From the sequence record PQ306573.1: a stretch of DNA of 64,000 bases, one strand, 5' to 3'. Under the pieces are notes generated by a model, which was not told the origin of the DNA, searched no databases, and saw only the letters and a list, made by a program, of their open reading frames with translations. Source of the stretch: Escherichia phage vB_EcoM_PTE-Eco05. Made by a program: the position numbers and the translations under genes. Shown one piece after another: positions 16,456 to 45,046 of the stretch (its first letter is position 1; each line of letters begins with the position of its first letter).

Positions 16456-16704
16456 ATGAGATTGCAACGCCAGAGCATCAAAGATTCTGAAGTTAGAGGT
16501 AAATGGTACTTCAACATCGTTGGTAAAGATTCTGAACTTGTTGAAAAAGCTGAACATCTTTTACGCGATATGGGATGGGAAGATGAATGCGATGGATGTC
16601 CTCTTTATGAAGACGGAGAAAGCGCAGGATTCTGGATTTACCATTCTGACGTCGAGCAGTTTAAAGCTGATTGGAAAGTTGTTAAGAAAAATCTGAGGAA
16701 ATAA
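16456..16704 (+). CDS. hypothetical protein (frd.2 position)
   Basis: ORF-track GTG start trimmed to ATG at 16456 behind AAGGAG; 82 aa. Confidence 0.55.
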   Translation: MRLQRQSIKDSEVRGKWYFNIVGKDSELVEKAEHLLRDMGWEDECDGCPLYEDGESAGFWIYHSDVEQFKADWKVVKKNLRK

Positions 16705-16706
16705 AA

Positions 16707-17294
16707 ATGCTTAAATTAGTATTCGCATGTGCTCCGACTAAAACAGTTGATGATAAACTGGAATATGCTTTTGGATTAGGTGATGGACTTCCATGGAAGC
16801 ATATCAAACAAGATATGAGTAACTTTGTTGCTCGCACTAAAAACACTGTAATGGTTATGGGTGCTAAGACATTTGCATCATTACCTCGTCTACTCCCAGA
16901 TCGTACTCATGTGGTTGTCACTGATATGGCCAGAGAACTGCCTAGGACCAAAACCAACGAACTTGCGCGTTTCTATATCACCCAATCTGAATTTATTACC
17001 TTGGTAATGGGTGGTGAAATTAACCTGTTTAGCACTGCAACTGACGTACCATTTAAACTTTCTACTGAACATGTTGATGTATCTGTTATTGGTGGCCCTG
17101 CTTTATTGAAACAAGCATTGCCTTATGCTGATGAAATCGTGATGACTAAAATCATTAAGAAATGTCGTGTTAATTCCGATGTTCAACTTGATAAAGATTT
17201 CGTCCAAGATATTATGCTTCAACGTTCTATGGTAGAATCTCATTACTACAGAATCGATGAACTCACCGAAATTACTGAGAGCGTTTATAAATGA
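16707..17294 (+). CDS. frd: dihydrofolate reductase
   Basis: 195 aa; GLGDGLPW, VMGAKTF, VIGGPALL motifs; strong similarity to T4 Frd. Confidence 0.92.
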   Translation: MLKLVFACAPTKTVDDKLEYAFGLGDGLPWKHIKQDMSNFVARTKNTVMVMGAKTFASLPRLLPDRTHVVVTDMARELPRTKTNELARFYITQSEFITLVMGGEINLFSTATDVPFKLSTEHVDVSVIGGPALLKQALPYADEIVMTKIIKKCRVNSDVQLDKDFVQDIMLQRSMVESHYYRIDELTEITESVYK

Positions 17295-19167
17295 AACAAT
17301 ACCAATACCTGATTAAAGATATCTTAGAAAATGGCTACGAAACAGACGACCGTACAGGTACAGGCACTATTGCCCTGTTCGGAACTAAATTGCGATGGGA
17401 TCTGACTAAAGGATTCCCTGCGGTAACAACTAAGAAATTAGCATGGAAAGCTTGTATTGCCGAGTTACTGTGGTTCATGTCTGGCTCTACCAATGTTAAT
17501 GATTTGCGTATTCGTACTCATGGTAGTCTTATTCAAGGTAAAACTATTTGGGACGACAACTATGAAAATCAGGCAAAAGACCTTGGATATCATAGCGGCG
17601 AACTTGGTCCTATTTATGGTAAGCAATGGCGTGATTTTGGTGGTGTAGACCAATTGGTCAAAACTATCGACCGTATTAAAGCTCTTCCTAATGATCGTCG
17701 TCAAATAGTTTCTGCATGGAACCCGGCTGAAATTGACCAAATGGCTCTTCCTCCTTGTCATATGTTCTATCAATTTAATGTGCGTAATGGACATCTTGAT
17801 TTACAATGGTACCAACGCAGTGTTGATGTTTTCTTAGGTTAATTTAGGCCTAGGTATAAGGTGACTTATACTTGTAATCTATCTAAACGGGGGACCTCTC
17901 TAGTAGACAATCCCGTGCTAAATTGTAGGACTACCCTTTAATAAATACTTCTATATAAAAAGAGGTGTTTATGAAAAGCGGAATTTATCAGATTAAAAAC
18001 ACTTTAAACGGTAAAGTGTATGTTGGAAGTGCTAAAGATTTTGAGAAAAGATGGAAGAGGCGTTTTAAAGACCTTGAAAACGGTGTTCACTCTTCTATAA
18101 AATTTCAAAGGTCTTTTAATAAACATGGTAATGTTTTTGAATGCTCTGTACTGGAAGAAATTCCATATGAGAAAGATTTGATTATTGAACGAGAAAATTT
18201 TTTGATTAAAGAGCTAAATTCTAAAATTAATGGATATAATATTGCTGATGCGTCTTTTGGCGATGTGCTTTCAAATCATCCATTAAAAGAAGAAATTGCT
18301 AAGAAACGAGCTGAAACTGTTAAAGCTAAGATGCTTAAGCTTGGTCCTGACGGTCGGAAAGCTCTTTATGGTAAACACGGAAGTAAAAATGGCCGATGGA
18401 ATCCAGAAAACCACAAGTTTTGTAAATGCGGTGTTCGCATACCATCTTCGGCCGATACTTGTGGAAAGTGCCGAAAACGTTCAGGTGAAAATAACCCGTT
18501 CTTTAATCACAAACATTCAGAAAAAACTAAAACTAAACTATCTGAAAAGATGAAAGGCAAAAAGCCAGCTAACATCAAAAAGATTTCATGCGATGGGATT
18601 ATTTTTGAATGTGCAGCCGATGCGGCTAGACATTTTGAAATTTCATCAGGATTAGTTACTTACCGTGTAAAATCTGATAAGTGGAATTGGTTCTACATAA
18701 ATGCCTAACGACTATCCCTTTAGGGAGTAGGGTCAAGTGACTCGAAACGATAGACAACTTGCTTTAACAAGTTGGAGATATAGTCTGCTCTGCATGGTGA
18801 CATGCAGCTGGATATAATTCCGGGATAAGATTAACGACCTTATCTGAACATAATGCTACCGTTCAACATTGCCTCGTACGCTGCCTTGACGCATATTGTA
18901 GCGAAGATGTGTAACCTTATCCCAGGTGATTTAGTGTTCTCAGGCGGCAACACGCATATCTACAGCAATCATGTAGAACAATGCAAAGAAGTTCTTCGTC
19001 GTGAACCTAAAGAGTTGTGTTCTCTTGAAATTAATTGGCCTAGTAATTTTGAGAATTGGCCTACAAAAATCCAAATGGACTGGGTTACTGGAACGATGAC
19101 ACATTCTGATTTCGTTCTTAAAAATTACGAATCTCATCCAACTATCAAAGCTAAAATGGCGGTATAA
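17291..19167 (+). CDS. td: thymidylate synthase, interrupted by a group I intron; CDS = join(17291..17839, 18856..19167)
   Basis: Exon 1 ends ...QRSVDVFLG, exon 2 continues LPFNIASYAALTHIVAKMCNLIPGD...; joined product 286 aa as in T4 Td. Confidence 0.93.
17840..18855 (+). mobile_element. self-splicing group I intron in td (1016 nt) carrying I-TevI
   Basis: Intron 5' end TAATTTAGGCCTAGGTATAAGGTGACTTATACTTGTAATCTATCTAAACGGGG... matches the T4 td intron as recalled; exon 1 ends with T, intron ends with G; length equals the T4 td intron. Confidence 0.9.
17971..18708 (+). CDS. I-TevI: GIY-YIG homing endonuclease I-TevI (intron-encoded)
   Basis: 245 aa from MKSGIYQIKNTLNGKVYVGSAKDFEKRWKRR...; GIY...YVG motif; near-identical to T4 I-TevI as recalled. 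Confidence 0.95.
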   Translation: MKSGIYQIKNTLNGKVYVGSAKDFEKRWKRRFKDLENGVHSSIKFQRSFNKHGNVFECSVLEEIPYEKDLIIERENFLIKELNSKINGYNIADASFGDVLSNHPLKEEIAKKRAETVKAKMLKLGPDGRKALYGKHGSKNGRWNPENHKFCKCGVRIPSSADTCGKCRKRSGENNPFFNHKHSEKTKTKLSEKMKGKKPANIKKISCDGIIFECAADAARHFEISSGLVTYRVKSDKWNWFYINA

Positions 19168-19422
19168 ATGATTTTACGTTTTATTAATTCATATGGCACC
19201 ACAATTTTTGAAATGAAAAATCCAAGTGAACTGGATATCCCTTCACCGAATAGTGAAATCACAGTTAAAGGTGAACGATTCATTTGTTATTCACATGAAC
19301 GAATTTATGAATATCGTGAATTTTGTGGTGGTTACGGTATGGAAAAAGAACCATTGGTTTATTTCGATATCACGGTCTTGACACCTAAAGAATACGAAGA
19401 AATTATTGCTGAGGATAATTAA
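19168..19422 (+). CDS. hypothetical protein (nrdA.1 position)
   Basis: 84 aa ORF starting 1 nt after the td stop. Confidence 0.55.
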   Translation: MILRFINSYGTTIFEMKNPSELDIPSPNSEITVKGERFICYSHERIYEYREFCGGYGMEKEPLVYFDITVLTPKEYEEIIAEDN

Positions 19423-19446
19423 CGCTTCAGTTTAAAAGTGTATAAT
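19423..19446 (+). promoter_or_regulatory. possible middle-type promoter upstream of nrdA (imperfect MotA box CGCTTCA plus TGTATAAT)
   Basis: GCTTCA at 19424-19429 and TATAAT at 19441-19446; first box position is C not T; a 7-bp stem-loop follows at about 19452-19474. Confidence 0.35.
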
Positions 19447-19509
19447 AAATTAACGGGATAAATACTATCCCGTTTGGAGTAATGTCTATCAACCTATACT
19501 GAGGAATAT

Positions 19510-20934
19510 ATGCAAGTAACTAAGAGCAGTGGTGTATCCCAAAATTTTGATGCACAGAAAATTATTCAAGTCTTAACTTGGCAATGTGAAGGAACACAAA
19601 TTGACCCATATGAATTGTACGAAGAAATTAAGACCCATCTTGTCGACGGGATGAGCACCAAAGATATCCAGAAGATTTGTATTAAAGTTGCAGCTAACTC
19701 GATTTCTGTCGAAGAACCTGATTATCAGTATGTCGCCGCCAAAGGGCTAATGTTTGCACTTCGTAAAGATGTATATGGGCAGTTTGAACCGCCTGCTTTT
19801 ATCGACCATATTTCTTATTGTGTTAATGAAGGCAAATATGACCCTGAGCTGTTGTCTAGATATTCTGCAGAAGAAATCATTTATCTTGATTCTCGGATTA
19901 AACATGAGCGAGATTTTGACCTGACTTATGCTGGTGCTATGCAGCTTAAAGAAAAATACCTGGTTAAAGATAAAACAACTGGGAAGATTTATGAAACTCC
20001 ACAGTTTGCTATCATGGCTATCGGTATGGCCTTACACCAAGACGAAACTCATGACCGTTTGAAACATATTATTCGTTTTTATGATGCCGTTTCTACTCAT
20101 CAAGTTTCATTGCCAACCCCAATTATGGCAGGTGCTCGTACTCCAACTCGCCAGTTCTCTAGTTGTGTAGTTATTGAAGCCGGTGATTCGTTAAAATCTA
20201 TTAACAAAACTTCAGCATCAATTATTGAATATATTTCTAAACGAGCTGGTATTGGTATCAACGTTGGTATGCTTCGTGCAGAAGGTTCTAAGATTGGTAT
20301 GGGTGAAGTTCGACATACAGGTGTTATTCCATTTTGGAAACATTTCCAAACTGCAGTAAAATCTTGTTCTCAAGGTGGTATTCGTGGTGGTGCTGCTACA
20401 GCGTATTATCCGATGTGGCACTTAGAAGTAGAGAACCTATTAGTTCTGAAAAATAACAAAGGCGTGGATGAAAACCGTATTCGACATATGGACTACGGAA
20501 TTCAGATTAATGACCTCATGATGGAACGCCTTGGTAAAAATGATTATATTACTTTATTTAGCCCTCACGAAATGTCAGGCGAACTATACTACTCGTTCTT
20601 TGAAGATCAAGATAAATTCCGTGAGCTTTATGAGAAAGCTGAAAAAGACCCAACAATCAGAAAGAAAAGAATCAAAGCACTAGAACTCTTTGAATTGTTC
20701 ATGACTGAACGTTCTGGTACTGCTCGAATTTATCCACAGTTTGTTGATAACACGAATAACTACACTCCGTTTATTCGTGAAAAAGCTCCAATTCGTCAGA
20801 GTAACTTATGTTGTGAAATCGCTATTCCAACTAATGATGTGAATAGCCAACAAACCCGTTTAATCAAAATTAAGAAGTCGGATGTAGCTAAGTTTTATGA
20901 AGCTAATCCTGGCGGTATAATTCAAAGCAAATAA
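19510..20934 (+). CDS. nrdA: ribonucleotide reductase alpha subunit, N-terminal piece (NrdA-a)
   Basis: 474 aa; ends ...SNLCCEIAIPTNDV (class Ia active-site Cys/Glu motif) followed by a 30-aa non-homologous tail and stop. Confidence 0.9.
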   Translation: MQVTKSSGVSQNFDAQKIIQVLTWQCEGTQIDPYELYEEIKTHLVDGMSTKDIQKICIKVAANSISVEEPDYQYVAAKGLMFALRKDVYGQFEPPAFIDHISYCVNEGKYDPELLSRYSAEEIIYLDSRIKHERDFDLTYAGAMQLKEKYLVKDKTTGKIYETPQFAIMAIGMALHQDETHDRLKHIIRFYDAVSTHQVSLPTPIMAGARTPTRQFSSCVVIEAGDSLKSINKTSASIIEYISKRAGIGINVGMLRAEGSKIGMGEVRHTGVIPFWKHFQTAVKSCSQGGIRGGAATAYYPMWHLEVENLLVLKNNKGVDENRIRHMDYGIQINDLMMERLGKNDYITLFSPHEMSGELYYSFFEDQDKFRELYEKAEKDPTIRKKRIKALELFELFMTERSGTARIYPQFVDNTNNYTPFIREKAPIRQSNLCCEIAIPTNDVNSQQTRLIKIKKSDVAKFYEANPGGIIQSK

Positions 20935-20979
20935 AGTACACAGACCGTTAATAAATAATCCATAACAAGAGGAAAAGTT

Positions 20980-21690
20980 ATGGATTATTCTAAAATTTAC
21001 AATAACCTTATTTCTAAAGCTAAGAATAGAAAATTAGATTGCTATACCGAATCACACCATATTATACCTCTGTGTATTGGTGGTTCTGATACAAAGGAAA
21101 ACCTGGTAGATTTGACACCAGAAGAGCATTACATAGCTCATCAATTATTAGTAAAGATATATCCAGATAATCATAAATTGATATTTGCCGCTAATATGAT
21201 GTGTGTTTATTCTAAAGATAATATTGAACGAAAGAACACCAATAAACGCCATGGGTGGCTTAGAAGAAAATTGGCTATTTCTGTATCTGAAAATAATAAA
21301 GGCAAACCAGCTTGGAACAAAGGTATTCCTATGTCTCCAGAAGTTAAATCTCGACTTCAAACATCTTGGGTGTTTACATTTCCGGATGGTCATGAGGAAA
21401 TTCATCGAGGTCTTAACGAATTTTGTAAAGAGCATAATTTAAATCCATCTGCAATGTCAGCCGTTTGTAAAGGTAAACGGGCGCATCACAAAGGATTTAA
21501 GTGTAAGAAATTGGATAAGATTTCAGAGCTTGATAATTTAGTTTTCGTCAGTAAACCTCATCCAAAGGGATTAAAACCCCATAACTTAATTGCTGTAAAA
21601 ATAAACGGTATAGAATATCAATCAATACATCGAGCATCTAAAGCTTTAGGAATTACTAGAAAAAAGGTAGAAGAATTAAATGAATATTGA
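20980..21690 (+). CDS. HNH homing endonuclease (MobE-like) inserted within nrdA
   Basis: 236 aa; HNH motif ESHHIIPLCIGGSDTKENLVDLTPEEHYIAH; own RBS GAGGAAAAG; stop overlaps the start of the downstream nrdA piece. Confidence 0.8.
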   Translation: MDYSKIYNNLISKAKNRKLDCYTESHHIIPLCIGGSDTKENLVDLTPEEHYIAHQLLVKIYPDNHKLIFAANMMCVYSKDNIERKNTNKRHGWLRRKLAISVSENNKGKPAWNKGIPMSPEVKSRLQTSWVFTFPDGHEEIHRGLNEFCKEHNLNPSAMSAVCKGKRAHHKGFKCKKLDKISELDNLVFVSKPHPKGLKPHNLIAVKINGIEYQSIHRASKALGITRKKVEELNEY

Positions 21691-22669
21691 TTATGAATTT
21701 GTAGATGAATTTTACGAAGATGATGAGTATACTACAATAAAAGTTATTGAAAACAAGGGAGAAGTGGGGCTTTGTACTCTCTCTGCATTCGTATTAGATA
21801 AATTTGATTGGCAAGACCAAGATAAAATTAATGAACTTGCTGAAGTACAAGTACGTGCACTTGATAACCTGTTAGACTATCAAGATTATCCGGTTCCAGA
21901 AGCTTTAAAAGCTAAAAAGCGTCGTAATCTTGGTGTTGGTGTTACGAACTATGCTGCATGGTTAGCTTCTAACTTTGCTTCATATGAAGACGCTAACGAT
22001 TTGACTCATGAATTGTTTGAGAGATTGCAATATGGCCTTATCAAAGCATCAATCAAACTCGCCAAAGAAAAAGGATGTTGCGAGTATTATTCAGACACTA
22101 AATGGTCTAGAGGCGAATTACCTATCGACTGGTACAATAAAAAGATTGACCAAATCGCAGCCCCGAACTACGTCTGTGACTGGGAAGAACTTCGAGCTGA
22201 ACTCAAAGAACATGGAATTCGTAACTCAACGTTGTCTGCACTCATGCCTTGTGAGTCAAGCAGTCAAGTATCGAACTCTACAAACGGGATTGAGCCCCCA
22301 CGTGGTCCAGTAAGTATTAAAGAATCTAAAGAAGGCAACTTCCGACAGGTTGTTCCTAATATCGAACATAACATGAGTCTTTACGACTACGCGTGGAAAC
22401 TTGCTAAGAAAGGTAATAAACCTTATTTGACCCAAGTTGCTATCATGTTGAAATGGGTGTGCCAATCTGCTTCTGCTAATACTTACTACGACCCTGCAGT
22501 ATTTGAGAAAGGTAAAGTGCCAATGTCAGTAATGCTTGACGATCTGCTTTACTTCTGGTACTTTGGCGGAAAAAACCTCTACTATCATAACACCCGTGAT
22601 GGGTCAGGTACAGATGACTATGAATTAGAAACACCTAAAGCTGAAGATTGCTCTGCTTGTAAGCTTTAA
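21680..22669 (+). CDS. nrdA: ribonucleotide reductase alpha subunit, C-terminal piece (NrdA-b)
   Basis: 329 aa; after a ~29-aa leader continues GEVGLCTLSAFVLD...; ends with C-terminal CSACKL cysteine pair typical of NrdA. Confidence 0.9.
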   Translation: MNIDYEFVDEFYEDDEYTTIKVIENKGEVGLCTLSAFVLDKFDWQDQDKINELAEVQVRALDNLLDYQDYPVPEALKAKKRRNLGVGVTNYAAWLASNFASYEDANDLTHELFERLQYGLIKASIKLAKEKGCCEYYSDTKWSRGELPIDWYNKKIDQIAAPNYVCDWEELRAELKEHGIRNSTLSALMPCESSSQVSNSTNGIEPPRGPVSIKESKEGNFRQVVPNIEHNMSLYDYAWKLAKKGNKPYLTQVAIMLKWVCQSASANTYYDPAVFEKGKVPMSVMLDDLLYFWYFGGKNLYYHNTRDGSGTDDYELETPKAEDCSACKL

Positions 22670-22724
22670 GACTTTTGATTATAATTTACTCATGGATGAG
22701 TTAATAACTAAGTGAGAAAATATA

Positions 22725-24994
22725 ATGAGTACAGTTTTTAATACACAACAAGTCGATGTTTTGAACGAACCGATGTTCTTTGGTTCTGGTCTTGGTCTTG
22801 CACGGTATGATATTCAGCGTCATAAAGTTTTTGAAGAACTTATAGAAAAATCCTTGTCATTTTTCTGGCGCCCCGAAGAGGTAAACTTAATGTTGGACTC
22901 TGCACAGTTCAATAAGCTTCCTCAGTTCCAACAGGACATCTTTACAAACAATCTTAAGTATCAATCATTATTGGATTCTATCCAAGGCAGGGCCCCATCT
23001 GCGGTACTTATGGCACTGCTTTCCGACCCTTCATTAGATACGTGGGTTGCAACATGGACATTCAGTGAAACTATTCACTCTCGTTCATATACTCATATTA
23101 TGCGAAATCTTTATACCGATCCATCCAAAGTATTTGATGAGATTGTATTAGACGAAGCAATCATGAAACGAGCTGAATCAATAGGTAAATATTACGATGA
23201 TGTTCTAGTCAAGACTCGTAATTGGGAAAATGCTAAAGAATTTGTAGAACTAGCTAAAGAATCTCCTGATGCCGACTTTCGTTTAAACCGAGCTATTAAA
23301 CAAGAAGCCGAAGCTAAACGTGCTTTAATGAAATCTCTTTACCTCTGTTTGCACGTTATTAATGCCTTAGAAGCTATTCGTTTTTATGTATCTTTTGCGT
23401 AAAATGCGCCTTTAAACGGTAACGTTTATCGAAAACTCCTTTAATTGCTGGAAAGTCCTTTATAGGAAAACTAGCAGCCAAGGTTTTGCTTGCACCTTTA
23501 ATTAGTATAATATAAATATGATTATACTTTTAAGAGGATGCACAATTGAACTATAGAAAAATTTGGATAGATGCTAACGGACCTATACCTAAAGATTCTG
23601 ATGGAAGAACATACGAAATCCATCATAAAGACGGTAACCGTGAAAATAATGATTTAGATAATTTGATGTGCCTTTCTATACAGGAACATTATGATATACA
23701 TTTAGCTCAAAAAGATTACCAGGCTTGTCATGCTATAAAGCTTAGAATGAAATATTCTCCTGAAGAAATTTCTGAATTAGCTTCTAAAGCCGCAAAATCT
23801 AGAGAAATCCAGATTTTTAATATCCCTGAAGTACGAGCTAAAAATATTGCCTCTATTAAATCTAAGATAGAAAATGGTACATTTCATCTTTTAGACGGTG
23901 AAATACAGCGTAAATCTAATTTAAATAGAGTTGCATTAGGTATACATAATTTTCAACAAGCTGAGCATATTGCAAAAGTTAAAGAACGCAATATTGCAGC
24001 TATAAAAGAAGGTACTCATGTATTTTGCGGTGGTAAAATGCAGTCAGAAACTCAATCAAAACGGGTAAATGACGGTTCACATCATTTCTTGTCAGAAGAC
24101 CATAAGAAAAGAACATCAGCAAAAACATTAGAAATGGTTAAGAACGGAACCCATCCTGCACAAAAAGAAATCACATGTGATTTCTGCGGTCACATTGGTA
24201 AAGGTCCTGGATTTTATCTAAAACATAATGACAGATGTAAATTAAATCCAAATAGAATTCAATTGAATTGTCCATATTGTGATAAGAAAGATTTATCACC
24301 ATCAACATATAAACGATGGCACGGCGACAATTGCAAAGCAAGGTTCAACGACTAGTCTTCGGACGTAGGGTCAAGCGACTCGAAATGGGGAGAATCCCTC
24401 TGGGATTGTGATATAGTCTGGTCTGCATAGTAATATGTAGCAGTTCATAAGAGAACGGGTTGAGAATTAGCGAGCTCAATCGAACATAACGGTACCTTTA
24501 ACTTCCATAAGAACATGGAAATTATGGAAGGTAATGCAAAGATTATGAAGTTCATTGCTCGTGACGAACAACTCCATCTCAAGGGTACTCAGTACATTAT
24601 CCGTCAACTTCAATCTGGTACTGATGGCGATGAGTGGGTTCAAATTGCTAAAGAATGTGAACAAGAAGCAGTTGACATTTTTATGGAAGTAAATCGTCAA
24701 GAGAAGGAATGGGCTGCACACCTCTTTAAAGACGGTACATGTCCAGGTATCAATACGCAGAGTATGTGTGCTTTTGTTGATTACTTGACTGTGTCTCGTA
24801 TGAAACAGTGTGGTTTGCCATGCCCAATCACTGATGCTCCGACCAAGCATCCGTATCCTTGGATTCGTGAATATCTTAACTCTGATTTAGTTCAAGCAGC
24901 TCCTCAGGAAGTTGAAATCAGTTCTTATCTTGTTGCACAAATTGATAATGATGTGGACCAAAATGTAATCAATTCATACAAAAAATATTTCTAA
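22725..24994 (+). CDS. nrdB: ribonucleotide reductase beta subunit, interrupted by a group I intron; CDS = join(22725..23400, 24492..24994)
   Basis: Exon 1 ...LEAIRFYVSFA plus T of a Cys codon; exon 2 resumes GT ACC TTT AAC... giving CTFNFHKNMEIMEGNAK...; joined product about 392 aa. Confidence 0.85.
23401..24491 (+). mobile_element. group I intron in nrdB (about 1091 nt) carrying I-TevIII
   Basis: Exon 1 ends with T (23400), intron ends with G (24491); frame is restored only by this join; boundaries inferred, not matched to a reference. Confidence 0.75.
23546..24355 (+). CDS. I-TevIII: HNH homing endonuclease I-TevIII (full-length, intron-encoded)
   Basis: 269 aa; HNH motif YEIHHKDGNRENNDLDNLMCLSIQEHYDIH and C-terminal Cys-rich zinc finger (CDFCGH...CPYC); length matches the intact RB3-type I-TevIII as recalled. 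Confidence 0.85.
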   Translation: MNYRKIWIDANGPIPKDSDGRTYEIHHKDGNRENNDLDNLMCLSIQEHYDIHLAQKDYQACHAIKLRMKYSPEEISELASKAAKSREIQIFNIPEVRAKNIASIKSKIENGTFHLLDGEIQRKSNLNRVALGIHNFQQAEHIAKVKERNIAAIKEGTHVFCGGKMQSETQSKRVNDGSHHFLSEDHKKRTSAKTLEMVKNGTHPAQKEITCDFCGHIGKGPGFYLKHNDRCKLNPNRIQLNCPYCDKKDLSPSTYKRWHGDNCKARFND

Positions 24995-24998
24995 GGAC

Positions 24999-25012
24999 GG
25001 GACTTCGGTCCC
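24999..25012 (+). terminator. UUCG-loop hairpin after nrdB
   Basis: GGGAC-TTCG-GTCCC directly after the nrdB stop, followed by a T-rich tract. Confidence 0.55.
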
Positions 25013-25020
25013 ACTTTATT

Positions 25021-25431
25021 ATGAAAGATATTGCCGCCGAATATTCCTTTATTAAATATATAGAATTGGAGCTATTAGAAGATGCAACAATTAAAACAGT
25101 TGATGTCCCTAATAAGAAAAATGTCATATATGCTATTGCTATAGATGACGAACTTGTGTATATTGGTAAAACCAAGAATTTAAAGAAACGCATTAACTAT
25201 TATCGAACAGCCATAAATCGAAAAGACCAGACTTCAGATTCAAGAAAATCACTTATGATTTTGGATGCCTTAATGCAAGGCAAAAAGGTTGAATTCTGGG
25301 CCCGCCAATGTTTTGACCTTTCAGTCACCAACGAACTTGGTTCAATGACCATCGCAACAATGGACCTTGAAGAACCACTTTTTATCAAAAAGTTCAACCC
25401 GCCTTGGAATATCCAACATAAGAAAAAGTAG
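25021..25431 (+). CDS. denA: endonuclease II (GIY-YIG family)
   Basis: 136 aa, MKDIAAEYSFIKYIELE...VYIGKTKNLKKRINYYRTAINRKD...NPPWNIQHKKK matches T4 DenA. Confidence 0.95.
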   Translation: MKDIAAEYSFIKYIELELLEDATIKTVDVPNKKNVIYAIAIDDELVYIGKTKNLKKRINYYRTAINRKDQTSDSRKSLMILDALMQGKKVEFWARQCFDLSVTNELGSMTIATMDLEEPLFIKKFNPPWNIQHKKK

Positions 25432-25460
25432 TTTACATACCACAAGGATTGTGGTACAAT
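25431..25460 (+). promoter_or_regulatory. early-type promoter upstream of rnlA (GTTTAC ... TACAAT)
   Basis: GTTTAC 25431-25436 overlapping the denA stop, 18-nt spacer, TGGTACAAT. Confidence 0.55.
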
Positions 25461-25477
25461 TTAAAAAAACTAACTGA

Positions 25478-26611
<1,134 letters not shown>

Positions 26612-40663: not shown

Positions 40664-41626
40664 TTATAGTCCTAAAACTCTTGACGCAGAATTCACCACA
40701 CCTGTCAATGTGTTTATATTAGACACACCACCGGCAGTCCCACCTAATCTAGAAAGTCTTGATACTGCACTTCCTAGTCCAGAATCATTCTGATTATTTC
40801 CAAACATTCCTGAAACACTACTAATAAGTCCTGATTCCAGCCATTCTAAAGCAGCCTGTCTATTTACAGCACCTGATTGCATAACGCGATAAGCAAATGT
40901 TACGTCAAAAACTGTTATCTGATTATCACCATCATACGTTAACTCAGGAGAAGAGACACTAACAGGAATACATCCGGTGAACATGACAGCGGTATGTGGT
41001 AAACCATTTCTCGCATGTAAATTAACCTGAATATCTGCTTCGACGTCTTGTGGTAAAGCGCGAAGACCTGTTACAGGGTCTTGGACTGAGTTTACCCAGT
41101 CCTGCATTGCTCTAAAGTTAGATGCTTCGGAATCCATTCTAAAGCTTATTACTAACGGATCCATTTCTCGACCGGTAATTCGGATGTTCGGGGAGTTATA
41201 GTTGAAATCCGTTTCATAAGATAATCGGTTCTCAGGCATTTTTACAGAATAAATCATTAAACCTGTATTATTATATGCCATATTGAAGAAGTCTATCAGA
41301 TAAGCTCCTACTGTGAACTCACCTAACAAGCTTTGTACCGTACGTTGACTCATTGCTCCAATCAGATATTTACTTACACCTGATTTTCGAATTAATTTCT
41401 GTGTTCCTGCTGTAATCAGGGTTGTTACGCCCTGATTGATATCACCTTGAGTCAATCCTAGCCAATCTGAATCCAACCCTAAGTTATTATAAGCAAAACT
41501 ACCAATTGACGAAATTAGTGAAGACGATTTGGTCGATGGCGTAGTAGCAAATACACAACTAAACATATTGTTTCGTTGGAAATCTGCATTTATAGCTTGG
41601 TTATTAAATTCTTCTAAAGAGTACAT
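40664..41626 (-). CDS. 54: baseplate tail tube initiator gp54
   Basis: 320 aa; size and position (after 48) match T4 gp54. Confidence 0.9.
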   Translation of the reverse strand: MYSLEEFNNQAINADFQRNNMFSCVFATTPSTKSSSLISSIGSFAYNNLGLDSDWLGLTQGDINQGVTTLITAGTQKLIRKSGVSKYLIGAMSQRTVQSLLGEFTVGAYLIDFFNMAYNNTGLMIYSVKMPENRLSYETDFNYNSPNIRITGREMDPLVISFRMDSEASNFRAMQDWVNSVQDPVTGLRALPQDVEADIQVNLHARNGLPHTAVMFTGCIPVSVSSPELTYDGDNQITVFDVTFAYRVMQSGAVNRQAALEWLESGLISSVSGMFGNNQNDSGLGSAVSRLSRLGGTAGGVSNINTLTGVVNSASRVLGL

Positions 41627-42735
41627 TAGAAAGTCCCCGCATAAAGTGAAGAACGGTTTAATGTAATAATTTCTCGCATTGTTATCTCTAACGTAAATGT
41701 TGACGGTAAGTTAGGAGCAACAGCGAGACCATTAAATTGTCCATTTGGAGTTTTATCAAAACGTACGCTTTGAATTTGACACGGGCCAAATACATCAGTT
41801 AACCCGTCAAATTTAGATGTGTGTCCAAAGTTTTTAACCATCCAAATTGTAGGGTTGCTTACAACTAATACATTTGTTAATGACGCAGTAATCTTTTCAA
41901 ACAATGTCTTATTTTTTACTGCATCGTCTGGTGTCATAGGCTCAATAAACGTTGAACGGTACCATTCGTCTAAATAACTTTTAATCTCTTGGGCGTACTG
42001 CGATTTACCAGTCTCACCATATGAGAAATAGTTAAAATACTGGTAAATGTTTATAATAGCCATAAGGTCTTCAGTTGAACGTGGAGTTAAATCCCATGTA
42101 AAGACTTTAGTACGGTTCTCAGCACCGCCATACATACTACGAGAAGTCGTATAAATCTGTTCGTTATTATCAGCCATAAGCCCTTGAGTAATAGAATCTA
42201 ATGCACCAAAAACTGCAGTAGAAGCAATGTTACTTAAAACACCCGTAGCAGTACCTCCACCTTTAGTAATAAGGCTATCACCGATATCATTAAAACGATG
42301 TGAAGTTGTATCAACGTCAGATTTGGAACGTGGCAAAAGGATATTGGCAACAGGAGTTTTATTTATAGTAGATTTATTAGCTCCAGCAGGAAGCAATCCA
42401 TTTGAGAATTTAGTCACTGCATCTTTCACATTATCAGTTAAATCTGATATGATACCATTAGATGAAGTCCCGGCATACGCCGGACGTAAATTCCTGAGGG
42501 ATCCTGAATCGCGTGCAGACATATTGTACGCGGTAAATAATAATCCATTCTTATAAAGGTCTGTTACCTGGAAGTCTCCTGTGGAGTCATTTCCGGCTGC
42601 TCTTCCTGTAGGAAATTGAGCAACATAAGTTTTAGTAGTTGTTTCGGTTTTAGTGCTTTGCCCAGCACTTTCTGAGACTGGGATTGCTTTATTTAAATCC
42701 TTTGCATCTACTACTATTTCTTTTACACTAATCAT
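41626..42735 (-). CDS. 48: baseplate tail tube cap gp48
   Basis: 369 aa; follows gene 29; stop overlaps the gene 54 start. Confidence 0.9.
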   Translation of the reverse strand: MISVKEIVVDAKDLNKAIPVSESAGQSTKTETTTKTYVAQFPTGRAAGNDSTGDFQVTDLYKNGLLFTAYNMSARDSGSLRNLRPAYAGTSSNGIISDLTDNVKDAVTKFSNGLLPAGANKSTINKTPVANILLPRSKSDVDTTSHRFNDIGDSLITKGGGTATGVLSNIASTAVFGALDSITQGLMADNNEQIYTTSRSMYGGAENRTKVFTWDLTPRSTEDLMAIINIYQYFNYFSYGETGKSQYAQEIKSYLDEWYRSTFIEPMTPDDAVKNKTLFEKITASLTNVLVVSNPTIWMVKNFGHTSKFDGLTDVFGPCQIQSVRFDKTPNGQFNGLAVAPNLPSTFTLEITMREIITLNRSSLYAGTF

Positions 42736-42743
42736 AATAATCC

Positions 42744-44516
42744 TTAATTAACACCGGTGGCATGGAAAATTCCAGGAGCCGTTGTACTTGTTACAGGGGT
42801 CATATTCTGGACTACGGTATTCTTTTTGACGACATTATTTGTGTTACTAATCGCCGCTACCGGTTGCTGTTGTTTAGATTCAGAAGCACGTCCTTTCTCT
42901 ATTGACTGAACTTGTTTTGCTTCCGGAGATTTAGACGAAGATTCAGGCTTAACTGTTGTCTGAGCCTTTTTGGCTTCAGCCATTTTATTATTTAGCTTTT
43001 CAAATCTAGCATCTAGTTCCTTTTTAACAACAGGAGTTTTATTAAGTTCAGGGTCTTTAATAAGTTTACTTAAATCAGCATAAGACTTCTCGACGTTTTT
43101 AGCATTTTCCGGATTAGTCATATCGATTTTATCGATATAATCCTCAAATCTAACTAGTGCCGCACGAGTTTCATTAGCTTTTATATACGCCTCTTTACGC
43201 TCCTCTTCAGGTAACTCTTTTAATTTTGCTGATTCCGCAGCACGCTCATCGCTTGTACTAAACTCTTCTTTATTGTCATTACCACGAACCCAGTTAGTAA
43301 CGAATGTTTTGCCGCGTTGTAACATATCAAGACCTTTAGAAACGGTTCCTAATTCCCCATCGTCACGTTTCATTTGATATTTAGCGACTTTCTCTTGGTC
43401 TTCTTTCTTTAATTTGTTCCCAGTAGTTTCTTGGAATCCTTCTAAAGCACGTCCTTCTATTTCGTCCGCGGTATCGCCAAAACCTATAGCACGCAATATA
43501 GACGCAGAGAGTTTAGCCATTCCTAATTGAATTAGTTCACCTAAGTTCATTAATGCTGTTCTTACACCTTTGACAATAGCAACGGTTAAACCACCCCAGT
43601 CTCCAGCTTCCCACAATTGTTTTATAGAGTCAATAGAAGTGAATATATCACTTAAGAATTTACCCCACTCTTTAGCTTCATCGGAGAATTTAGTAAAGTT
43701 TTCATCAAATAAATCCCAGGCAGAAGTGAACTTGTCTGTCCAATATTTGAAATGGACTATCAATAAATCAATACCGATAACAATACCAAGAATAAGTGCG
43801 GCCATTTTTGCTGCTTCAATAGCAGCCGTTATAGTGTATTTGAAAAGCATTCCAGCAATTCTGTCTGAAATTGATATTGATTTATTAAACCCGGTTTGAA
43901 CTGTTTTGGTGAGCATTGCAATTTTATCGCTCAATTTAAAGCTAATTCCGCCTTTAGAATCGGAAGTAGAATTAGCACTTTCTTGAACCGGTGTTGGGAA
44001 GAAATCTTCGTCTGGCTTATTATCAATCTTTTCAGGTGTAGGGAATGCTTTAAACAACTCATCAGAAGTTTCATTCTCAACCACTTTAACAGGTATTGCG
44101 TTCTCAATTACTTCAAGAGAGGTGCCTCCTGTATTTTGAATAGCGGTAGATGTTTGTAATTTTTGCTCTAATAATGTAGCTAATCGGTCTAACTTAGAGC
44201 TTATTGCACTAGAAACTTCGTTTATACTTTTAGTGACTTCAGTTTGTTTTTCAATAACTTCTGCGATAAGCTCTGTGCCTTCAGCAGTATTATCTGTCGA
44301 ATTCTTTAAGTCTCCAATTGATTCAATAATTCCATTGCCTTTATCTTCTACACTTTGTGATGTGAGTTCAGACGCGGCTTGGACATCGTCTAGTTTTGAT
44401 GAAATGTTATTCAATGCTTCTAATGAATCGGTAGCTGCATCAGCAGCTACTTTTTGTGGTTTATTATCGGCAATGACCTTATTTCTACGCATGGATTTCA
44501 TTTCTTCAGGTTTCAT
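42744..44516 (-). CDS. 29: baseplate hub subunit / tail length determinator (tape measure) gp29
   Basis: 590 aa, same length as T4 gp29; extended helical/coiled-coil composition. Confidence 0.92.
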   Translation of the reverse strand: MKPEEMKSMRRNKVIADNKPQKVAADAATDSLEALNNISSKLDDVQAASELTSQSVEDKGNGIIESIGDLKNSTDNTAEGTELIAEVIEKQTEVTKSINEVSSAISSKLDRLATLLEQKLQTSTAIQNTGGTSLEVIENAIPVKVVENETSDELFKAFPTPEKIDNKPDEDFFPTPVQESANSTSDSKGGISFKLSDKIAMLTKTVQTGFNKSISISDRIAGMLFKYTITAAIEAAKMAALILGIVIGIDLLIVHFKYWTDKFTSAWDLFDENFTKFSDEAKEWGKFLSDIFTSIDSIKQLWEAGDWGGLTVAIVKGVRTALMNLGELIQLGMAKLSASILRAIGFGDTADEIEGRALEGFQETTGNKLKKEDQEKVAKYQMKRDDGELGTVSKGLDMLQRGKTFVTNWVRGNDNKEEFSTSDERAAESAKLKELPEEERKEAYIKANETRAALVRFEDYIDKIDMTNPENAKNVEKSYADLSKLIKDPELNKTPVVKKELDARFEKLNNKMAEAKKAQTTVKPESSSKSPEAKQVQSIEKGRASESKQQQPVAAISNTNNVVKKNTVVQNMTPVTSTTAPGIFHATGVN

Positions 44517-45046
44517 TCAAGCAATCCAATAATTTCTGCTATACCCTTAATAGGACCATTAGGGCCGGGAATAGCAATAGTTGTCGAAAGGTCTTCTGCC
44601 CATTTGATTACAAAAGCAGGCATCTCAAGGAAAGAAATTTCTTTCTCTTCGTCATTAACTTTTATTAAGCAATTTGATAGCATTTCACTGATTGTAGCGA
44701 ATTGTTCAAATTTGCCTGGGGGTCTAAAATAAAAAGTATTACCTTGAAATTGGAATTCTGTTCGTTGGCATACATAGACGTCATCTAGTCTATAAGTGAA
44801 TCCATCTTTTTCAACTTCAGACTTAAGTTTGTTATTAAATTCCAATATGTGTAGACATGCAAAATCAAAATCTGCGGGACTCATATTTTTACAAATAGAA
44901 TCGGCTAAGATTTTCATGTTTTCGTCAGGACCTTTAACGTCCTTTAAAAGATTATAATGTTTGAGTCCAAATTTGGGAATCATTACTTTTTTATTAGACT
45001 GTGGTAGAATTATTTTCTTTAGAGGTAGAATCAGATTTAAGTTCAT
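44513..45046 (-). CDS. 28: baseplate hub distal subunit gp28
   Basis: 177 aa, same length and position as T4 gp28; ATGA overlap with gene 29. Confidence 0.9.

Follow-up and report, generated by a model that had tools for sequence, protein, structure and literature searches.

A ribonucleotide reductase gene in two pieces

The gene nrdA, which encodes the alpha subunit of class Ia ribonucleotide reductase (RNR), is divided in Escherichia phage vB_EcoM_PTE-Eco05 (PQ306573.1) into two separate open reading frames (ORFs), nrdA-a and nrdA-b, by a cassette that carries mobE, a gene for an HNH homing endonuclease. The analysis covered 64,000 nucleotides (nt) of this genome, referred to hereafter as the window, which belongs to a Mosigvirus (Tevenvirinae) and has its best match in Escherichia phage JM17 (98.3% over the region). 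All three ORFs were found with the positions and lengths, in amino acids (aa), that the initial annotation of the locus had assigned to them (Table 1).

Table 1. Features of the split nrdA locus. Positions refer to the window, except for those of Aeromonas phage Aeh1, which refer to NC_005260.
Feature	Position	Strand	Basis
nrdA-a, 474 aa, N-terminal part of the class Ia RNR alpha subunit	19510..20934	+	ORF, Pfam, NrdA of an intact relative
Whole cassette (C-terminal extension, spacer with hairpin, mobE, N-terminal extension)	20849..21760	+	Junction alignments
C-terminal extension (CTE) of NrdA-a, QQTRLIKIKKSDVAKFYEANPGGIIQSK, plus stop codon	20849..20934	+	Without counterpart in intact alleles
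RNA hairpin, 13-bp stem	20954..20989	+	Fold z -2.7, covariation
mobE-type free-standing HNH homing endonuclease, 236 aa	20980..21690	+	Aeh1 MobE, T4 MobE, PHROG, Pfam
nrdA-b, 329 aa, C-terminal part of the RNR alpha subunit	21680..22669	+	ORF, Pfam, NrdA of an intact relative
N-terminal extension (NTE) of NrdA-b, MNIDYEFVDEFYEDDEYTTIKVIENKG	21680..21760	+	Homologous to the Aeh1 leader
Candidate co-conversion tract, T4-type (Tequatrovirus) nrdA codons within a Mosigvirus-type gene	21761..21796	+	Diagnostic sites
Aeh1 nrdA-A	43207-44628
Aeh1 mobE	42447-43160
Aeh1 nrdA-B	41489-42460

Pfam recognizes in nrdA-a the ATP-cone, the all-alpha domain and positions 1-221 of the barrel profile (E 2.6e-64), and in nrdA-b positions 219-523 of the same profile (E 3.9e-64), so that the two pieces are exactly complementary. 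When the NrdA of an intact relative was compared with the whole window by tblastn, a single nrdA locus was found, with residues 1-445 matching nrdA-a (99.6% aa identity) and residues 449-751 matching nrdA-b (99.0%). Mapping onto Escherichia coli R1 equates Cys434 and Glu436 of NrdA-a with Cys439 and Glu441, and Cys32 of NrdA-b with Cys462; it thereby bears out the earlier placement of the split between the equivalents of Cys439/Glu441 and that of Cys462, with the break at about R1 residue 455/456. NrdA-a also holds Cys219 (the equivalent of E. coli C225, read from the sequence) and Asn432, while the radical-path Tyr-Tyr and the C-terminal CSACKL, likewise read from the sequence, reside in NrdA-b. 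All these features of class Ia NrdA (C225, N437, C439, E441, C462, Y730/Y731 and the C-terminal Cys pair) are present, albeit spread over two ORFs.

The first piece and the endonuclease ORF share one frame, with stop codons between them, and nrdA-b lies in another; the stop codon of mobE, as had been noted, overlaps the start of nrdA-b, the overlap amounting to 11 nt. Two sigma-70-like promoter matches 5' of nrdA-a (19378..19446, plus strand), found in a consensus scan and weak as evidence, are the probable start of a transcript comprising nrdA-a, mobE, nrdA-b and nrdB. Scanning revealed no plus-strand terminator-like site and no exact late promoter within 19510-22725, and neither a sigma-70-like nor an exact late promoter directly 5' of mobE. 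According to the ORF list, the 55-nt spacer that separates nrdA-b from nrdB in the window is free of an endonuclease gene.

The inserted cassette and its limits

A search for an uninterrupted nrdA among relatives identified phage vB_EcoM-172859UKE1 (MZ234025), whose 751-aa nrdA is 98.6% identical on either side of the insert, and it is this close relative that allows the insert boundaries to be defined. Alignment at base level gave the junctions: 912 nt (20849-21760) take the place of CTGATGCT in T4, and 916 nt (20845-21760) that of 12 nt, GGTCCTGATGCT, in the intact Mosigvirus allele, for a net gain of 904 nt. The insert lies in a loop that is bounded by the equivalents of Cys439/Glu441 and of Cys462 and of which 8-12 nt have been replaced, and the intact alleles of vB_EcoM-172859UKE1 and T4 read AATGATGTGAAT(GGT/AGC)CCTGATGCTGAAATTGG around it. 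With a G+C content of 32%, the cassette stands apart from the flanking nrdA (38-40%).

The cassette consists, in order, of 28 codons and a stop codon that form the tail of NrdA-a, a 45-nt spacer, mobE, and 27 codons with their own start that form the leader of NrdA-b, which leaves only the 45-nt spacer as non-coding sequence. The initial annotation had allotted 30 residues to the tail and about 29 to the leader; both extensions are real, but their lengths are 28-29 and 27 aa, respectively. At the downstream junction, ENKGEVGLC (21749-21772) aligns better with the loop DENGEIALC of E. coli R1 (residues 454-462) than with the T4-type SPDAEIGLC. Since the end of the leader thus resembles the E. 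coli loop more than the T4-type loop, the cassette may have brought along some codons from a longer, ancestral form of this loop of nrdA.

A family of split alleles with conserved extensions

The cassette is present in 34 GenBank coliphage records and in at least nine divergent metagenomic lineages. Searches with the MobE protein of the window returned full-length homologues whose identity grades from 82% to 50%, and in all nine whose contigs (Logan/ENA) were inspected, mobE lies between an NrdA-a of about 475 aa and an NrdA-b of about 325 aa, its stop codon overlapping the nrdA-b start every time. A search of a collection of 5.8 billion proteins with the leader region (75 aa) yielded one candidate, which led to a third cassette variant, L091, 80% identical to that of the window. 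A MobE-profile scan of IMG/VR recovered the intragenic arrangement in Aeh1 only, the remaining matches being T4-style intergenic mobE or split-intein genes. Twelve lineages, including those of the nine inspected contigs, HY01 and Aeh1, were compared; down to a MobE identity of 45-50%, the architecture, the tail motifs and the charge pattern are all kept, and a purine-rich motif resembling a Shine-Dalgarno (SD) sequence lies 5' of the nrdA-b ATG in every lineage.

The alignment shows that both the basic C-terminal tail and the acidic N-terminal leader are missing from intact NrdA. In the window, the CTE has an isoelectric point (pI) of 10.0 and a charge of +3.8, and the NTE a pI of 4.05 and a charge of -7.5. 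All 12 lineages carry the CTE motif L[IVF]K[IV][KR]K[SKC][DE][IV]xxF, with net charges of +2.8 to +6.4, as well as the NTE motif YE[FIV]VxEFYED[DE]EYTT, with net charges of -7.5 to -13.5. Relative to L091, the ratio of nonsynonymous to synonymous substitution rates (dN/dS) is 0.16 in mobE, and the extensions are as well conserved as the endonuclease (CTE, 0.23; NTE, 0.14); in the core of nrdA it is 0.03-0.06. With the Aeh1 counterparts, the extensions align without indels in their conserved parts (C-tail, ...RLIKIKKSDVAKF... in the window versus ...MLFKVKKSEVDKF... in Aeh1; N-leader, MNIDYEFVDEFYEDDEYTTIKV...EVGLCTL versus MIEHERIYEVYEDEEYTTVEI...EISLCTL), and when an Aeh1 tail was used to query 50,697 phage records, the best non-self matches were exactly the 34 split coliphage alleles.

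MAFFT placed the tails against unrelated NrdA residues. When the fused protein served as query, all that was recovered was intact, near-identical NrdA of the T4 type. A match of the leader to VR7-type NrdA was rejected, as it represents the ordinary loop of a gene of normal length.

MobE and the hairpin at its translation start

The product of the inserted gene matches Aeh1 MobE over most of its length (45% identity over 227 aa, E 1e-57; 236 aa here, 237 aa in Aeh1), T4 MobE over residues 1-133 (46% identity, tblastn) and PHROG 655, 'homing endonuclease' (E 5e-59). Its HNH domain is N-terminal (His26/His27, Asn41, His50/His54) and is followed by DNA-binding modules of the I-HmuI/NUMOD-like type. 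The stretch ESHHIIP...N41...H50...H54 aligns with the HNH domain of McrA (6ghc, E 0.0035), and the HNH residues are invariant or nearly so across 30 homologues. Further along, the protein matches Pfam PF22083 (I-HmuI NUMOD-like, E 1.7e-9), and its middle matches the sequence of I-HmuI (1u3e, E 0.0024). An AlphaFold2 model built from the 30 homologues (mean predicted local distance difference test score, pLDDT, 89) has strands at 24-27 and 42-45 followed by a helix at 47-60, and the closest fold in the PDB is again I-HmuI (1u3e, E 1.3e-4, probability 1.0).

The two cassette variants of coliphages are only 68% identical over 220 nt in the middle of mobE (21326-21545) but 97-100% identical at both ends, so that mobE is itself a mosaic. 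As the divergent segment encodes the NUMOD-like DNA-binding part of MobE, the mosaic possibly reflects a swap of DNA-binding modules.

The endonuclease ORF does have its own ribosome-binding site, as had been claimed from the letters alone, and this site is embedded in an RNA structure: the loop of the hairpin, AAGAGGAAAA, contains the SD sequence (GAGG), and its 3' arm, GUUAUGGAUUAUU, contains the mobE AUG (20980-20982). A hairpin over the AUG is common to seven of the 12 lineages. In their alignment, 92% of the cells are paired and three pairs have undergone compensatory changes of both bases (GC/AU, UA/CG and AU/GC); the covariation score of 0.232 compares with 0.135 in shuffled alignments, none of 500 of which reached 0.232, and with at most 0.10 in slid controls. 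The structure is backed by covariation, and the hairpin, which buries the start codon, probably restrains translation of MobE.

Probable recent homing between genera

The cassettes of the window, a Mosigvirus, and of fPS-2, a Tequatrovirus, are 99-100% identical, whereas the nrdA sequences that flank them share 79% on the left and 85.7% on the right. Two cassette variants, about 91% identical overall, circulate, each in both genera. At sites that distinguish T4 from Mosigvirus alleles, the window is of the T4 type at 20845, 20847 and 21775-21796 and of the Mosigvirus type at and below 20832 as well as at and above 21802; on the left the T4-type stretch thus comprises 20845-20848 (AGCC) only, and the longer tract lies on the right (Table 1). 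In JM17 and AV111, the corresponding tracts are shorter or patchy. The near-identity of the cassette across genera with divergent flanks, together with the retention of a donor-type tract, points to spread by recent homing, and the tract has the form of the footprint that would be expected of break repair from a Tequatrovirus-derived donor.

Relation to known split genes

The initial annotation had likened the locus to the mobE insertion of Aeh1, and the likeness goes beyond analogy, as the endonuclease (at the 45% identity given above) and both tails are homologous. The Aeh1 cassette occupies the same site and register, within the loop bounded by the equivalents of C439/E441 and C462, is likewise AT-rich, and contributes a basic C-tail and an acidic N-leader (pI 10.4 and 3.8; PMC3045599); its spacer measures 46 nt (45 nt here), and mobE overlaps nrdA-b by 14 nt (11 nt here). 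There, too, an RNA hairpin is found at the mobE translation start; at the equivalent place, however, it covers the SD sequence (PMC3045599, Fig. 5 legend), whereas the AUG is hidden in the window.

What the Aeh1 system offers is experiment. Its holoenzyme has been described as fully functional, with the composition (NrdA-a/NrdA-b)2/NrdB2 and a wild-type-like specific activity; the tails are retained on the mature proteins, and their deletion lowers activity about 2000-fold (all PMC3045599). The split RNR of Aeh1 was published as unique, database searches with its tails having given its authors no matches. Unlike Aeh1, the window has near relatives in which the site is empty, as well as co-conversion tracts of the donor type, so that recent homing is directly visible. 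The two also differ in setting, since Aeh1 is an Aeromonas phage (Cinqassovirus) with relocated nrdAB genes, whereas the window derives from a Tevenvirinae coliphage whose operon retains the T4 position beside td and nrdB.

In T4 itself, mobE shares the related N-terminal HNH domain, the operon and the free-standing, intronless life style, but it is intergenic, between nrdA and nrdB, and splits no gene. Since the T4 match ends at residue 133, the C-terminal part of about 100 aa in the MobE of the window and Aeh1 is unmatched in T4. An extra ORF between nrdA-b and nrdB occurs in two of the metagenomic lineages (L092, 4169-4810, 213 aa, with a faint NUMOD3 match; L099, 2219-2995, 258 aa). As it sits at the position of T4 mobE, the intragenic and intergenic sites may both be occupied there.

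Another T4 locus, gene 39/mobA/gene 60, resembles the window in that a HNH gene of the Mob family splits the gene of an essential enzyme and in that the resulting extensions, which are thought to aid reassembly (PMC3045599; bioRxiv 10.1101/2022.08.31.505936), have a similar charge distribution; it differs in its target gene, in the unrelated sequences of its tails and in the involvement of a translational bypass element. Finally, in the 'fractured' nrdA genes (Dassa et al. 2009, PMC2677866), a homing endonuclease gene likewise separates two ORFs and the break is close to the active-site cysteine, but these ORFs carry recognisable intein fragments at NLC|C (Pfam 6e-9 and 5e-6), for which ligation by trans-splicing is expected. 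The tails of the window have no intein signature and lie about 12 codons further downstream, and those of Aeh1 stay on the mature proteins.

Intein-related arrangements turned up among the metagenomic contigs as well. Two IMG/VR contigs (L028 and L032) hold a split-intein 'fractured' nrdA that is interrupted at NLC|C and whose halves flank a free-standing HNH or GIY-YIG gene. In a third (L031), a GIY-YIG-like ORF interrupts nrdA in the loop that mobE otherwise occupies, and the 43-aa tail has a weak intein-splicing match (E 0.011). An ENA contig (L093; ERZ14207129, 607-4187) encodes an NrdA-a of 614 aa that includes an intein (PT-HINT / Intein_splicing) ending ...ILVHN right before the Cys439 equivalent, with the mobE cassette about 12 codons downstream, so that two different mobile elements reside within one active-site loop.

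One enzyme from two polypeptides?

How might an enzyme divided within its active-site loop be made to work? The region is very probably a 'genes-in-pieces' nrdA of the Aeh1 type, produced by a mobile cassette that was copied by homing into a loop of the RNR barrel. On this interpretation, nrdA-a, mobE, nrdA-b and nrdB would be co-transcribed, and neither RNA nor protein splicing would take place, as was shown for Aeh1 and as the lack of the respective signatures suggests here. The two polypeptides would associate so that the barrel and a composite active site are rebuilt and, by analogy with Aeh1, an active enzyme results; the oppositely charged tails would promote formation of the (NrdA-a/NrdA-b)2 dimer and of the holoenzyme with NrdB2, a role established for Aeh1 and suggested in the window by the homology and conservation of the tails. 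The hairpin that buries the AUG would keep translation of MobE low. During mixed infection, MobE would cut or nick an intact nrdA near the site, and repair would copy the cassette with a few flanking bases, as the co-conversion tracts and the identity across genera imply.

Several points weigh against this interpretation. The case for a functional split enzyme in the window and the other coliphage members would rest on homology to Aeh1. As the intact relative matches both halves at 99% identity, the insertion is recent, which means that the window's own sequence cannot show selection on the split enzyme, and the selection argument would hence come from the divergent lineages only. For the tails, the dN/dS values derive from small numbers of sites, the CTE having 21 differences and the NTE 11. 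As for the hairpin, the element it hides here is not the one hidden in Aeh1, three lineages (L095, L097 and L098) lack it or have a different one, and the covariation set comprises only seven distinct sequences in which one arm is coding.

Could the insert be removed from the RNA or from the protein? A group I (or other) self-splicing intron with an endonuclease ORF, which would restore a contiguous nrdA mRNA, would be in keeping with td and nrdB of the same operon, both of which do hold group I introns with endonuclease ORFs, and with the frequency at which RNR genes are intron targets (PMC3653736). Nevertheless, the Rfam scan of 16500-25500 (E <= 1) that detected these two introns (E 2e-6 and 9e-6) found no group I core in 20845-21760, and the 45 non-coding nt are, as the initial annotation had argued, too few for one; the flanking 28 and 27 codons, moreover, are kept as protein (dN/dS 0.14-0.23; motifs in 12 lineages), which would be needless for an intron. 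In the abstract of Friedrich 2007, the Aeh1 element is reportedly called neither a self-splicing intron nor an intein. Later accounts of this homologue state the same (PMC3653736, PMC7344957), and an intron in the window must be regarded as highly improbable. Protein trans-splicing, with the tails acting as split-intein halves that ligate NrdA-a to NrdA-b, draws on the existence near the site of nrdA genes with a free-standing endonuclease between intein halves (L028 and L032; PMC2677866), on the degenerate intein that Crona et al. raised as a possible origin (PMC3045599) and on a charge complementarity like that of split inteins. It is difficult to reconcile with tails of 28 and 27 aa, real halves having about 100 and 35 aa, with the lack of a block A Cys/Ser start and of a terminal His-Asn (the last residues of the NTE are ...NKG, and Glu occupies position +1), with the different frames of the pieces and with the persistence of the Aeh1 tails in the mature proteins. 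Pfam Intein_splicing matched neither the window tails nor those of Aeh1 at E <= 10, the L028 controls scoring 6e-9 and 5e-6, and very little credence can be given to ligation.

Alternatively, the insertion may have inactivated nrdA, leaving ORFs that are decaying remnants in a phage served by host NrdAB or by the phage anaerobic RNR. T4 nrdA is indeed auxiliary, being needed only in nrd-defective hosts (table in PMC5931544), and in an insertion so recent, the absence of decay proves little. Inactivation is nonetheless unlikely: lineages whose MobE is 50-67% identical keep full-length halves with complete Pfam coverage and conserved tails, the nrdA core evolves at a dN/dS of 0.03-0.06 between the window and L091, and the split enzyme of Aeh1 is wild-type-like in specific activity (PMC3045599). 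No point was found to support a sequencing or assembly artefact or a frameshift, a caveat attached to the initial annotation; an insert of net 904 nt with a complete endonuclease gene speaks against it, and the architecture recurs in the 34 GenBank records, to which many laboratories contributed, as well as in Logan/ENA contigs of independent origin. This recurrence excludes an assembly error and reduces the explanation to a practically negligible one.

A different question is where the tails came from. They could be the last remnant of a split intein, with the mobE cassette descended from a 'fractured gene' of the order N-intein, free-standing endonuclease, C-intein, although this origin is doubtful. 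If it were true, the splicing chemistry would have been lost and the electrostatic association kept, turning the halves into a portable tag for non-covalent reassembly that lets an endonuclease gene invade an ORF without an intron or intein. The support is circumstantial: genuine split-intein nrdA genes lie about 12 codons away (L028 and L032), the GIY-YIG split of L031 is in the same loop and has a weakly intein-like tail (E 0.011), and in L093 an intein occurs together with the mobE cassette. Pfam, even at a permissive threshold, does not support an intein ancestry of the tails.

What the coliphage alleles add

The 'genes-in-pieces' nrdA of the window is of a kind already characterised in Aeh1 (Friedrich et al. 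2007, PNAS; Crona et al. 2011, NAR, PMC3045599), and the same allele is public in 34 phage genomes. Such insertions with conserved tails are mentioned as unpublished in one sentence of a 2022 preprint (bioRxiv 10.1101/2022.08.31.505936); the split nrdA of coliphages was otherwise not found described in the searchable literature. The comparative results confirm rather than overturn the Aeh1 model, and what goes beyond published work, as far as could be found, are the tail motifs across 12 lineages, the covarying start-codon hairpin and the transfer across genera with co-conversion tracts. The tails and the endonuclease gene move together as a single unit, which means that the element carries its own 'antidote', in support of the origin proposed by Crona et al. 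The same cassette now circulates in two genera of ordinary T4-like coliphages, and numerous uncultured relatives have it as well.

The 12 diverged versions of the tails and the versions of the start-codon hairpin define conserved motifs that are open to mutational testing, and E. coli phages with 98.6%-identical empty-site relatives are far more tractable than Aeh1 for work on homing, on the MobE target and on the split active site. There is also a practical side, as several deposited genomes leave nrdA pieces unannotated: one or both are missing from the annotation of HY01 (KF925357) and UFV-AREG1 (KX009778), and in a paper on the related phage vB_EcoM-UFV13, nrdA is given as absent, being counted among the genes 'not predicted' (PMC5931544).

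Neighbouring elements

The operon made up of td, nrdA and nrdB holds, as had been proposed, three homing endonucleases of two families, one GIY-YIG (I-TevI-like) and two HNH (MobE-like and I-TevIII-like). The td gene is split by a group I intron (exon 1, 17291-17842; exon 2, 18853-19167; Rfam Intron_gpI at 18577-18807, E 2e-6), whose ORF (17965-18708) encodes the I-TevI-like GIY-YIG enzyme. In nrdB (22725-24994), a group I intron (Rfam 24200-24440, E 9e-6) contains an ORF (23546-24355) for a full-length, 269-aa I-TevIII-like HNH enzyme (PHROG 12324, E 2e-193). Just 5' of this ORF, at 23511-23518, is an exact late-promoter motif, TATAAATA. The I-TevIII of T4 itself is truncated. Compared with 17000-25000 of the window, vB_EcoM-172859UKE1 has uninterrupted td, nrdA and nrdB genes, and given its identity of about 98.6%, all three endonuclease-bearing elements are polymorphic among very close Mosigviruses.

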